A stretch of DNA of 64,000 nt, taken from NCBI RefSeq assembly GCF_044324785.1, contig NZ_CP172127.1; one strand, 5' to 3'. This stretch comes from Escherichia coli (GTDB taxonomy: Bacteria; Pseudomonadota; Gammaproteobacteria; Enterobacterales; Enterobacteriaceae). The translations under genes and the position numbers were made by a program. This document shows, piece after piece, positions 8,785 through 11,078 of the stretch (within the stretch, counting starts at the first letter, position 1; the number at the start of each line of letters is the position of its first letter). The notes beneath the pieces were generated by a model, which was given only the letters and a program-made list of their open reading frames with translations, ran no database searches and was not told the DNA's origin.

Positions 8785-9528
8785 ATGACGCAGACACTGA
8801 ATCCGGTCATCACTGTCACCGTGTCCGGTCCTGTGGGCAGCGGTAAAAGTTACATATTGGCGCGGATAGAGGAAGTGGTGAAACAGGAATTCGGGGGCAG
8901 CGTCATTGTCGATGCTGCAGACGTAGATGATGAGCGGCGTATGAGTGGCGATGATCTGACGACCTGGCAGAAGCCACGGGGTGGCACAGTGATCAGGCTG
9001 GAGGAATACACGGGACAGGGCCTGTTGTCATACGGCGAGGAGCGTATCTGTCGGACGAATGAGCTGCTGGATGTTATATGCCCCACGGGCCGGCAACCCT
9101 GGATACTGCCCGATGCACTGCATGCCACCATTGCGGCACTGATGACAGTTTACGATCAGGAGCTGCTCATGAAGGAGCTACGTAAACTCACCGGTCAGCC
9201 AACAGAATGTTTTTCTGCCCCGAAGTACGGGAAACAGGAACACATCCCGGTGAACACGCTCCCCGTTAACCAGCCTCCCCGGTTCTTCGACGAATACATT
9301 CTGACACCGGAAAATAAAGCTGAGCACGAAGAGATCAAAGCGGCGTTGTTCCGGGAAATCAGGAAGATTGCTGAAATGCAACTGGGGGGCGGGCTGGACA
9401 GAGTGATGGCGAGAGGAGAATGGGAGTCGCTGTTTGAAAGAGTTTCCCCGGAATTACTTCCCCTCGCACTGGCTATCGGGATTATGCAGACAGCGGATAA
9501 ACCTCACTTACGTTCATTAAACACGTAA
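8785..9528 (+). CDS. P-loop NTPase of unknown function (prophage cargo)
   Basis: ATG 8785 with GAGGAG 8 nt upstream; Walker A GPVGSGKS at residues 15-22; remaining 220 aa not recognised. Confidence 0.5.
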   Translation: MTQTLNPVITVTVSGPVGSGKSYILARIEEVVKQEFGGSVIVDAADVDDERRMSGDDLTTWQKPRGGTVIRLEEYTGQGLLSYGEERICRTNELLDVICPTGRQPWILPDALHATIAALMTVYDQELLMKELRKLTGQPTECFSAPKYGKQEHIPVNTLPVNQPPRFFDEYILTPENKAEHEEIKAALFREIRKIAEMQLGGGLDRVMARGEWESLFERVSPELLPLALAIGIMQTADKPHLRSLNT

Positions 9529-9908
9529 CGCATAATCCGGGATACGCATTCAGCGATGACTGCATTTTCACCGGTTTTTACTGCATCCAGAAGTGACTCT
9601 TTAAATGGTGCGGGCCGGGGCTGCAGAAGGGTCGGCGTGGCATTGAGCAGACGGAGCGTTTTTTCCGTGAGGACGACATCAGCCGCTCCCACAGCCAGCA
9701 ACTGAGAGTAACGAATATAGCTGTTATCCCGAAGCCATATCAGCGTATCAATAAAATACCGGCACTTTTTCTGGTCGTGATCAACCTGGTCCGGGATATC
9801 GAAAAAACCAGAATAAATCAAAACCTGAGGTGCCGGATGCGTGTTCAGTAATCGGCAGAATATTTTGCCGGTGAGTGCATAAAAATCATCATTTAAGGAG
9901 TGCATCAT
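9504..9908 (-). CDS. hypothetical protein (134 aa), convergent with P-loop gene
   Basis: Only long ORF covering 9529-9906; 3-prime end overlaps P-loop gene by 25 bp; start codon overlaps start of the opposite-strand ORF. Confidence 0.35.
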   Translation of the reverse strand: MMHSLNDDFYALTGKIFCRLLNTHPAPQVLIYSGFFDIPDQVDHDQKKCRYFIDTLIWLRDNSYIRYSQLLAVGAADVVLTEKTLRLLNATPTLLQPRPAPFKESLLDAVKTGENAVIAECVSRIMRYVFNERK

Positions 9909-10122
9909 GAATCCCCGATTAACGTTAACAGAACATCAGCGCCGTGCTGAAGCAGTGAACAATGTTCTGGAAGATATTATCCGGTTACATCGCGGAGAAC
10001 TGAGTGTCTGTCGTGCCGCTTTTCATTTTCAGGGAATACAAAAGCAGTTTGATACTTCTGTTTTTGCAGAAGGTATTACTTATGCCCTGGACCGGATAAG
10101 GTCAGAAAATCGCCCCGGATAA
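9907..10122 (+). CDS. hypothetical small protein (71 aa)
   Basis: ATG 9907 preceded by AAGGAG at about -12 to -7; no recognisable domain. Confidence 0.3.
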   Translation: MNPRLTLTEHQRRAEAVNNVLEDIIRLHRGELSVCRAAFHFQGIQKQFDTSVFAEGITYALDRIRSENRPG

Positions 10123-10178
10123 TCCCTAAACCACATTAACAGAAATCCCACTATCCCTGCCGCATCATGAAAGAACGA

Positions 10179-10209
10179 CCAGCCCGGTGCTTCGGACCCA
10201 CCGGGCTGG
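10179..10209 (+). other. GC-rich hairpin with C(UUCG)G tetraloop-like apex
   Basis: CCAGCCCGGTG (10179-10189) pairs with CACCGGGCTGG (10199-10209); loop CTTCGGACC; no U-tract after it. Confidence 0.45.
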
Positions 10210-10313
10210 CCATCGTCCCACAGAAGTGGCTGTGAGCCGACCGAGGTTCAGTCAGTCTCGCGAGACCAGACTAGCCTGCCATATTTTTAATAATTGTAAA
10301 AGGCTTACAGATT

Positions 10314-11078
10314 ATGAAAATGAAGACATTACCCATCGTTCCATGGATTGGTGGCAAACGTCGCCTGGCAAAACACATCCTGCCGCTGTTTCCGGCGCAT
10401 GAATGTTATGTGGAGCCGTTTTGTGGGGCAGCAGCGCTCTATTTTCTTAAGACACCCGGCAAGATCGAAGTCATCAATGATATCAACGGTGAACTGGTGA
10501 ATCTGTACCGGGTGGTAAAGCATCACCTGGAAGAATTTGTCCGCCAGTTCAAATGGGCGCTGGTCAGCCGTCAGATCTACAAATGGCTGCAGATCACCCC
10601 GGAAGAAACACTGACGGATATCCAGCGTGCGGCACGGTTCTACTACCTTCAGAAGCAGGCGTTTGGCGGCAAGGTGGCAGAGCACAGCTTCGGTACCTCC
10701 ACCACATCCCCGCCACGCTTCAACCTGCTGCGTATTGAAGAAGAACTGTCAGCAGCACACCTGCGGCTTTCCAGAACAGTCATAGAACACATGGACTGGC
10801 AACAGTGCATTGAGCGTTATGATCGTCCGCACACACTGTTCTACTGCGACCCACCGTACCTGGGTACGGAAGGCTATGGTGTGGATTTTCCTGAAGGGAA
10901 CTACTCGCGGCTGGCAGAGCTGGCCCGGTGCATCAGAGGAAAAATGATAATTTCGGTGAACGATATCCCACAGATGCGCGAGGTGTTCACTGGACTGAAC
11001 ATACAGACAGTGAACATCAACTACAGTCTGGCGGGGAAATCTACGCCGCGCCGTGAACTGGTAATCTGCAACTTCTGA
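10314..11078 (+). CDS. Dam-like N6-adenine DNA methyltransferase (D12 class), orphan
   Basis: 254 aa; N-terminal PWIGGKRRLA...FCGAAA (SAM-binding) and catalytic DPPY motif; no adjacent restriction endonuclease. Confidence 0.85.
   Translation: MKMKTLPIVPWIGGKRRLAKHILPLFPAHECYVEPFCGAAALYFLKTPGKIEVINDINGELVNLYRVVKHHLEEFVRQFKWALVSRQIYKWLQITPEETLTDIQRAARFYYLQKQAFGGKVAEHSFGTSTTSPPRFNLLRIEEELSAAHLRLSRTVIEHMDWQQCIERYDRPHTLFYCDPPYLGTEGYGVDFPEGNYSRLAELARCIRGKMIISVNDIPQMREVFTGLNIQTVNINYSLAGKSTPRRELVICNF

Follow-up and report, generated by a model that had tools for sequence, protein, structure and literature searches.

The window examined here is a stretch of 64,000 nucleotides (nt) of contig NZ_CP172127.1 from Escherichia coli (assembly GCF_044324785.1), and the region of interest is the interval between the late/lysis operon and the immunity repressor gene of a Mu-type (BcepMu-like) prophage. 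A first-pass annotation of the sequence had placed the interval between these two modules, had bounded it by the start of the late operon at 8654 and by the repressor gene at 11195, and had described it as free of morphogenesis genes. These statements hold: 8654 is the start of the holin gene predicted by PGAP, 11195 is the 3′-end of the repressor gene, and no morphogenesis gene lies between them. The four open reading frames (ORFs) reported there were recovered at the same coordinates, and PGAP predicts the same four in a 100% identical E. coli chromosome. They encode a 247-amino acid (aa) protein (8785..9528, plus strand; phrog_3787, WP_000194949) with the Walker A sequence GPVGSGKS at residues 15-22; a 134-aa protein (9504..9908, minus strand; phrog_2266, WP_000972292), the gene for which has a convergent overlap of 25 nt with that for the 247-aa protein; a 71-aa protein (9907..10122, plus strand; phrog_4490, WP_001069609), the gene for which is the divergent partner of the 134-aa gene; and a 254-aa D12-class DNA adenine methyltransferase of the Dam family (10314..11078, plus strand; phrog_56, WP_001573937). 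All four products match PHROG families (4e-164 for phrog_3787, 6e-44 for phrog_2266, and 2e-52 for phrog_4490, in addition to phrog_56), and the first three of these families are of unknown function. The earlier remark that two of these proteins belong to no described family is therefore correct as regards function but not as regards classification, since they fall in named families. Two features of the interval had been overlooked, namely the overlapping start codons of the 134-aa and 71-aa genes and a conserved structured element in the 190-nt “spacer” that precedes the methyltransferase gene (dam).

The dam gene and its structured leader

The dam product scores 117.4 bits against the Dam-family model TIGR00571 (cut-off 114.85), matches the PADLOC model MTase_II PDLC03253 at 5.9e-113, and contains, as read from the translation, the S-adenosylmethionine (SAM)-binding motif EPFCGAAAL and the catalytic motif YCDPPYLG. 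It aligns to the structures of DpnM (2dpm) and E. coli Dam with modest similarity (E = 1e-14 to 1e-17), and many proteobacterial phages encode relatives of 64-99% identity. The view that this D12 methylase lacks a cognate nuclease was confirmed, in that PHROG, NCBIfam, and PADLOC gave no nuclease match; the adjoining endonuclease gene that would mark a type II restriction-modification system was not found, the neighbours being the 71-aa ORF and the repressor gene. GATC occurs across the locus at an ordinary density (4.0 per kb). On the other hand, the methylase is not the anonymous piece of cargo for which it had been taken, but part of a widely conserved module in which a structured leader is followed by dam, with or without an intervening com gene. 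The com gene encodes a zinc-finger translational activator, and com-mom of phage Mu and com-dam of phage B3 are late modification genes under translational control.

The leader of dam is a structured 5′ RNA element of approximately 150 nt (10165..10316, plus strand; 5′ border putative), which scores 118.5 bits in the window with the covariance model R1 described below. It comprises, all on the plus strand, the helix H1 (10177-10211), a segment a (10217-10223), a segment b (CUGUGAGCC, 10230-10238), the helix H3 (10244-10277), and a segment c (GGCUUACAG, 10302-10310), and segment b has two alternative pairing partners, a and c. The ribosome-binding site and the spacer in front of the dam ATG at 10314 fall within segment c. 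In the predicted lowest-energy fold (-57.4 kcal/mol, z-score -4.3), H1, b:c, and H3 are formed and the 5′-end pairs with the AUG as well; keeping segment c unpaired is predicted to cost ~10.6 kcal/mol, and truncated transcripts of 75-80 nt are predicted to form a:b. Sequestration of the ribosome-binding site and start codon in an RNA helix, which is the mark of Mu-type com/mom control, is thus indicated for this leader by folding prediction and covariation.

The 190-nt region before dam is the best-conserved sequence of the locus and is kept upstream of dam whatever gene precedes it. From viral contigs, 80 loci encoding the Dam relatives of 64-99% identity were taken; their upstream regions have the same hairpins in different sequences, and 18 of these regions were used to build R1. 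In a search of 59 viral-contig loci, R1 located the leader on the plus strand upstream of dam or com-dam in 50, the loci L088 and L089 included. The leader was found in all enterobacterial relatives that have dam, and also in Pseudomonas phage B3, in which the annotated com gene begins where the leader ends. At a distance of 150-1000 nt between leader and dam, the 3′-end of the leader is the starting point of an ORF for a Com-like zinc-finger protein; such ORFs are present in B3 and in the relatives L056, L058, L064, and L082. In the window, no Com zinc-finger ORF was found upstream of and overlapping dam, and the leader runs to the dam ATG. The only ORF inside the window leader (10187-10402) was rejected as a Com-like candidate, as it lacks the zinc-finger pattern and its frame is broken by indels among relatives.

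Two metagenomic relatives contain 300-aa ORFs that run without a stop from near the 3′-end of the leader into dam (L072, 2803-3705; L051, 2860-3762). The N-terminal part of the L072 ORF is Com-like, which suggests either a com-dam fusion or a sequencing frameshift; the L051 ORF, which begins with GTG and lacks the Com motif, is more likely an out-of-frame or mis-started read-through. A full-length leader (103.6 bits) also occurs in a prophage variant without dam, in E. coli JNEC-KY202 (L017, 2883-3030), where it is flanked by a DUF2441 gene and a 203-aa gene; it was probably left behind by a deletion.

Pairing was counted in 66 distinct leader sequences, with shuffled sequences and slid partners as controls. 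In the modelled pairs, 82.1% of the cells were paired, compared with 69.2% after shuffling and 27-42% with slid partners, and 30 of the 34 pairs change on both sides. The b:c helix over GGCUUACAG, located 4 nt before the AUG, was 81% paired, and all nine of its pairs change on both sides. The a:b hairpin, which lies outside the model, was 88.3% paired (74.5% shuffled, 18-46% slid). Segments a, b, and c co-vary among phage groups, reading CCCACAG, CUGUGAG, and CUUACAG in one group, CCCGCAG, CUGCAAG, and CUUGCAG in a second, and CCACUG, CAGUGAA, and UUUCACA in a third. This covariation supports two mutually exclusive helices, a:b and b:c, and one-sided changes (C-to-U opposite G; G-C to G-U) fit the plus strand. 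Comparison of positions 8000-12500 with Rfam 15 gave no match at E ≤ 1, and in eight divergent leader loci the single overlap was with ctRNA_pGA1 on the minus strand (29.5 bits, against a gathering threshold of 45). The leader is apparently undescribed, a new element of the locus that has strong support from covariation and is absent from Rfam.

Gene layouts of the slot and its three small genes

In related prophages of E. coli, Klebsiella, and Serratia, the interval between the holin and repressor genes takes at least five layouts other than that of the window, in which the gene for the 247-aa protein (hereafter the mosaic protein) is followed by the 134-aa gene, the 71-aa gene, and dam. The mosaic protein gene may be followed directly by dam; it may encode a 158-aa version and stand in a prophage without dam that carries two unrelated genes behind the repressor gene; a DUF2441 gene may be accompanied by dam and a 175-aa gene, or by two other genes; and dam may be the only gene of the interval, in which case genes for a YejK-like nucleoid-associated protein and a 401-aa partner lie behind the repressor gene. 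In BcepMu, the slot holds gp18-gp20. These differences between related prophages justify the label “cargo slot.” The YejK-like/401-aa pair (L018, 3843-6058, in E. coli L4_E1441_ETEC) is located just downstream of the repressor gene, and it matches the NCBIfam anti-phage models DS1_1 and DS1_2 at 1e-17 and 3e-21, below the curated cut-offs. This sub-slot, occupied by the DS1-like pair in one relative, is empty in the window. The 401-aa partner also has a weak match to PADLOC KwaA.

The suggestion that the interval is a hot spot for defence and anti-defence genes survives in part: the slot is variable, but the window contains no PADLOC defence match except to generic methyltransferase models, and neither “defence locus” nor “P-loop NTPase” nor “orphan methylase as cargo” finds support as originally worded. 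That at least one of the 247-, 134-, and 71-aa genes is defence, anti-defence, or superinfection-exclusion cargo nevertheless has, in our judgment, not much less than an even chance, and this possibility is compatible with what is proposed below for the 134-aa/71-aa cassette and for the Walker-A protein. In addition to the variability of the slot and the presence of relatives of DS1-like anti-phage proteins in the same slot of one relative, it is favoured by the nature of the cassette, which is compact, moves between unrelated phage types, and lies in P2-like phages between the replication endonuclease and portal genes, an interval described as a defence hotspot (PMC9519451). The 247-aa family, too, combines a constant N-terminal domain with shuffled C-terminal modules, an arrangement common in conflict genes. 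Against this stand the family searches, in which the 134-aa and 71-aa proteins had zero matches among the PADLOC 2.0 or NCBIfam 2026 defence models and the 247-aa protein matched only mad8, weakly (E = 0.0046) and over the Walker A region, as well as fold comparisons, in which the matches were uninformative and the model of the 134-aa protein was too poor to be searched. Moreover, co-transcription of the plus-strand genes with dam would leave them unexpressed in the lysogen, which suits an anti-defence function more than a defensive one.

The occurrence of homologues in a Serratia prophage (53% identity) and in P2-like phages (~31% identity) indicates that the 134-aa ORF is a real gene. Its start codon overlaps that of the 71-aa gene by 2 nt (CATG at 9906-9909), and the ribosome-binding site of each gene lies inside its partner: AAGGAG is found 6 nt before the 71-aa ATG, and GGGGA precedes the 134-aa ATG on the opposite strand. 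The same back-to-back layout is present in Serratia and in the P2-like phages Midge and ST147-VIM1phi7.1, with phrog_2266 as the large gene. In the P2-like phages, the cassette is located between the replication endonuclease/DinI genes and the portal gene, that is, in the hotspot that extends from replication gene A to the portal (tin/old locus); by contrast with this shared arrangement, the small partners in Midge and ST147-VIM1phi7.1 are of a different family (phrog_2454 instead of phrog_4490), and hhalign found no homology between them and the 71/73-aa partners. By these comparisons, the 134-aa/71-aa pair is a mobile accessory cassette. In Klebsiella phage ST147-VIM1phi7.1, a gene for a 316-aa “polymerase” and a helix-turn-helix gene (gp02-gp03; L023, 3556-4792) adjoin the phrog_2266 cassette in the interval from the DinI-like region to the portal gene, and may represent another hotspot system.

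An unlikely alternative for this cassette is a regulatory switch, or a toxin-antitoxin-like pair, in which the putatively DNA-binding 134-aa protein and the overlap of the two mRNAs at their antisense 5′-ends would render expression of the 134-aa and 71-aa genes mutually exclusive. The location of each ribosome-binding site within the other gene agrees with such a switch, as does the retention of the 2-nt overlap in E. coli, Serratia, and the two P2-like phages despite the differing families of the small partner. The predicted secondary structure of the 134-aa protein (helix-helix-strand-strand-helix, at low confidence) is compatible with a winged helix, so that a winged-helix-like protein may tentatively be considered, and the homologue in phage Midge was deposited under the name of a putative transcriptional regulator. 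AlphaFold, however, modelled the 134-aa protein with a pLDDT of 49, so that the model was not used for a fold search, and no helix-turn-helix or toxin family was matched in the family searches. A profile of the 134-aa protein had zero matches among PDB sequences at E ≤ 10, and the protein had none in Pfam and PADLOC; Pfam scans of the three small proteins gave nothing, or Walker A noise only. The UniRef name “DUF2513” of the Serratia homologue was not reproduced with Pfam, and a match to P0054, a 2018-aa repeat protein, was dismissed as spurious.

The 247-aa protein is composed of a conserved Walker-A mini-domain of 75 aa (residues 1-76), a middle module after which the 141/158-aa “ABC transporter ATPase” versions of the protein terminate (residues ~77-140), a linker predicted to be disordered (residues 141-171), and a C-terminal module (residues ~172-247) that is encoded in Serratia by a separate 89-aa gene, the product of which matches phrog_3787 positions 176-230. 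Nearly all of the 55 relatives retrieved by exhaustive HMMER searching align over residues 1-76 only, and beyond residue 76 short modules are combined in differing orders from one member to another. In the AlphaFold model, pLDDT exceeds 90 for residues 11-70 and falls below 50 for residues 141-171. The protein looks like a fusion of a 141/158-aa-type unit and an 89-aa-type unit and its family occupies the holin-adjacent position in many enterobacterial relatives.

Within the mini-domain, G20 and K21 are invariant in 31 members of the family, and G15, G18, and S22 (each ≥90%), E50, W61, and P64 are near-invariant; in a few members, which carry GAESSGKN, K-N replaces K-S. The earlier designation of the protein as a P-loop NTPase is thus appropriate in so far as a Walker A sequence (GxxxxGK[ST]) follows a β-strand within a domain of ~75 aa, but a full NTPase fold is not recognizable: neither the complete α/β core nor an acidic Walker B residue was found by profile and fold comparison. 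The Pfam and PDB profile matches are confined to the Walker A strand-loop-helix (positions ~10-48) and are spread equally over many unrelated NTPase families and a designed phosphate-loop protein, and the comparison corrects the label “ABC transporter ATPase / P-loop NTPase” that is given to the protein in some annotations. Catalysis by the Walker A motif, as in a small and active P-loop NTPase or kinase, is rather improbable for this protein, even though GxxGxGK[S/N] is the most conserved feature of the family and the domain profile matches both the Walker A strand-loop-helix of ABC transporters and the designed minimal “phosphate-loop protein” 6c2u. The order of strand, Walker A loop, and helix with GxxGxGKS is shared with P-loop NTPases and with 6c2u; unlike these, the domain is a natural one of ~75 aa, lacks a recognizable Walker B, and is fused to shuffled helical modules. 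The domain may conceivably function in oligomeric form, as a naturally occurring minimal P-loop.

Three proposed accessory units and a putative RNA switch

The interpretation that we prefer, with moderate confidence, is that the interval is an accessory slot of three units, so that what appeared to be a single “cargo locus” is separable into a leader-dam module, a mobile cassette of the 134-aa gene and its small partner, and a Walker-A mosaic protein. The first unit would be a self-contained DNA-modification module composed of the ~150-nt structured leader and the Dam-family methyltransferase. The second would be the two-gene cassette of phrog_2266 and its small divergent partner, an insertion located upstream of the leader, and the third a mosaic protein built on the 75-aa Walker-A domain beside the holin gene. 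A role in genetic conflict is conceivable for the three small genes, although we would not call it probable.

Mu Mom and B3 Dam are thought to modify phage DNA. By analogy, the methylase of the first unit would be made mainly in lytic growth and would methylate phage DNA, perhaps in an anti-restriction role; modification of the phage's own DNA is what the comparison points to, because the leader-(com)-dam module is comparable to B3 com-dam and Mu com-mom. The leader would keep synthesis of the methylase low or brief, and timed, with off as the default state. When segment b is paired with the upstream segment a, the ribosome-binding site would be free, and when b is paired with c, it would be hidden. 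During transcription, the a:b hairpin would form first and would be replaced by the more stable b:c helix once c has been made, such that translation would be confined to nascent RNA or would depend on a factor that stabilizes a:b. A protein, a small RNA, or a ligand acting in this way is as possible as a mechanism based on folding kinetics.

Translational control by delayed RNA folding is known from the maturation-gene leader of phage MS2. The two leaders have in common a long-distance helix that masks the ribosome-binding site at equilibrium and a local hairpin, situated upstream and built with a strand of that helix, that forms first during synthesis and would open a short window for translation. 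By contrast, there is no sequence relationship between the two, and the kinetics in the present case were simulated by folding truncated transcripts. The resemblance to Mu com-mom and B3 com-dam lies in the type of gene and phage, these being modification genes of Mu-type phages with a translation start buried in RNA structure, and B3 and several metagenomic relatives have the same leader, followed there by a Com-like zinc-finger ORF and then by dam. The window differs from these systems in that it has no com and the leader abuts dam directly, and it differs from Mu in that Mu has no detectable copy of the leader and the window enzyme is of the Dam family, not Mom. Since the leader lies upstream of com where com exists, it would constitute an additional layer of control and not the target hairpin of Com. 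A bolder and rather doubtful extension is that the leader represents a new and widespread class of cis-regulatory RNA switch for the first gene (com or dam) of DNA-methylation modules in phages of Enterobacteria, Burkholderia, and Pseudomonas, which may sense a signal (SAM, S-adenosylhomocysteine, or a phage late factor) beyond folding kinetics.

Several points weigh against the leader-dam module and its proposed place in a three-unit slot. R1 gave no leader match in 9 of the 59 related dam loci, in Mu (filters off), or in BcepMu (default filters), and the alignment used for the pair counts was derived from the covariance model and fitted to the modelled helices, though a:b was unmodelled. An enzyme acting on GATC would be redundant in a dam+ host, and nothing links the 247-, 134-, and 71-aa proteins functionally to the methylase. 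In favour of the module, a published ST131 methylome study reports, for a D12 Dam homologue on prophage Phi2 of strain EC958, low transcription in the lysogen and no new methylation motif (PMC4659465), a result that supports low expression of dam in the lysogen; the putative equivalence of that gene, EC958_1101 (M.EcoMIV), to the window dam is drawn from location and domain type, not from a locus tag.

It is very improbable that the block upstream of dam acts instead as DNA (an operator or promoter) or encodes a minus-strand small RNA: on the minus strand, H1 is followed by the terminator-like TCGTTCTTTC, a weak promoter-like site overlaps the dam start, and a sub-threshold ctRNA_pGA1 match occurs in L053, but several one-sided C-G to U-G changes preserve pairing on the plus strand and would become A-C mismatches if the minus strand were the RNA, the element invariably runs up to the start codon of dam or com with segment c covering the ribosome-binding site, the putative minus-strand -10 hexamer is variable at its second base, and minus-strand matches of the covariance model are limited to the H1 hairpin. 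Read as an RNA, the leader offers a testable example of the means by which temperate phages restrain a potentially harmful DNA methyltransferase, and gating of this kind could explain why prophage methyltransferases are found silent in lysogen methylomes.

Borders of the slot and distribution of the prophage

The intergenic region between the leftward holin gene and the 247-aa gene (8655..8784) contains a block, GGAGACAGCAT..TTTTAAAGCGCGTTAAGAG..TGCAGGATGA, that is conserved in all slot variants. In the alignment of these variants, the block is kept whatever gene lies to its right, even the minus-strand DUF2441 gene. For this reason, TTTTAAAGCGCGTTAAGAG was assigned to the holin side, and its candidacy as a rightward promoter was dropped; the region is probably the promoter or regulatory region of the late operon. 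An 18-mer of the holin-proximal block is unique within the window. At 10123-10146, TCCCTAAACCACATTAACAGAAA resembles the holin-proximal block TTTTAAAGCGCGTTAAGAG, and in prophages in which dam directly follows the holin gene, the TTTTAAAGCGCGTTAAGAG block lies ~50 nt before the leader. The sequence TCCCTAAACCACATTAACAGAAA may be the scar of a three-gene segment inserted between a TTTTAAAGCGCGTTAAGAG-type block and the leader.

At the right border, a GC-rich hairpin with an 11-bp stem (11085..11109), followed on the minus strand by the T-run TTTGTTTCAG, lies between the convergent dam and repressor genes and is probably the terminator of the repressor transcript. Direct reading of the plus strand showed no T-run after the hairpin; because the T-run is on the minus strand only, rightward dam transcripts may run antisense into the repressor gene. 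This gene encodes the helix-turn-helix immunity repressor (11195..11653, minus strand; PGAP coordinates), and divergent from it is a gp16/Ner-like gene (11634-11822), the product of which matches the BcepMu gp16 family with 97.4 bits (cut-off 34).

Judged by its gene content, the element that bears the slot is a BcepMu-like (Bcepmuvirus) transposable prophage. To the right of the slot lie genes for a DDE transposase, an ExeA-like protein, Gam, and Mor, and to the left those for the holin, a transglycosylase, the terminase, and a Mu-type portal. The features that define the Bcepmuvirus type are all present, namely a gp16/Ner-like protein, a DDE transposase, an ExeA/B-like ATPase, Mor, a Mu-type portal and terminase, and varied insertion sites. 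As in BcepMu (gp17-gp21), an early operon of gp16/Ner, transposase, and Mor genes is divergent from the repressor gene, and accessory genes are located between the repressor and holin genes. By contrast, the accessory genes of BcepMu are gp18 (a membrane protein), gp19, and gp20, each oriented like the repressor gene, and BcepMu has neither Dam nor the leader nor homologues of the three small proteins. Across 8001-13000, the late genes have a GC content of 0.56-0.62, whereas that of the slot and immunity region is 0.47-0.51, a drop that is consistent with a separate origin of the slot/immunity segment.

Many E. coli chromosomes match positions 8600-11300 with 100% identity, and the Bcepmuvirus PhiKM, an Escherichia phage, does so with 95.4%. 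The slot region was found in 635 of 5426 complete E. coli genomes, at chromosomal positions that differ between genomes, and at least 80% of it is covered in 483 of them. The prophage is thus present in approximately one in nine complete E. coli genomes, with ST131, ABU 83972, and enterotoxigenic E. coli (ETEC) strains among the matches, and this frequency places its accessory genes among the commonest uncharacterized genes of clinical E. coli. The insertion in the present strain disrupts gspL, with the right prophage end located between 20432 and 20790; EC958 carries the same locus in a prophage that adjoins ycaL. Near the right end, Mor is followed by a 210-aa hypothetical gene (19799-20431, plus strand; phrog_12870) and, according to the RefSeq annotation, by a further 53-aa ORF. 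Both are absent from the EC958 copy, in which the prophage stops directly after Mor, and the region to the right of Mor looks like a second accessory position.

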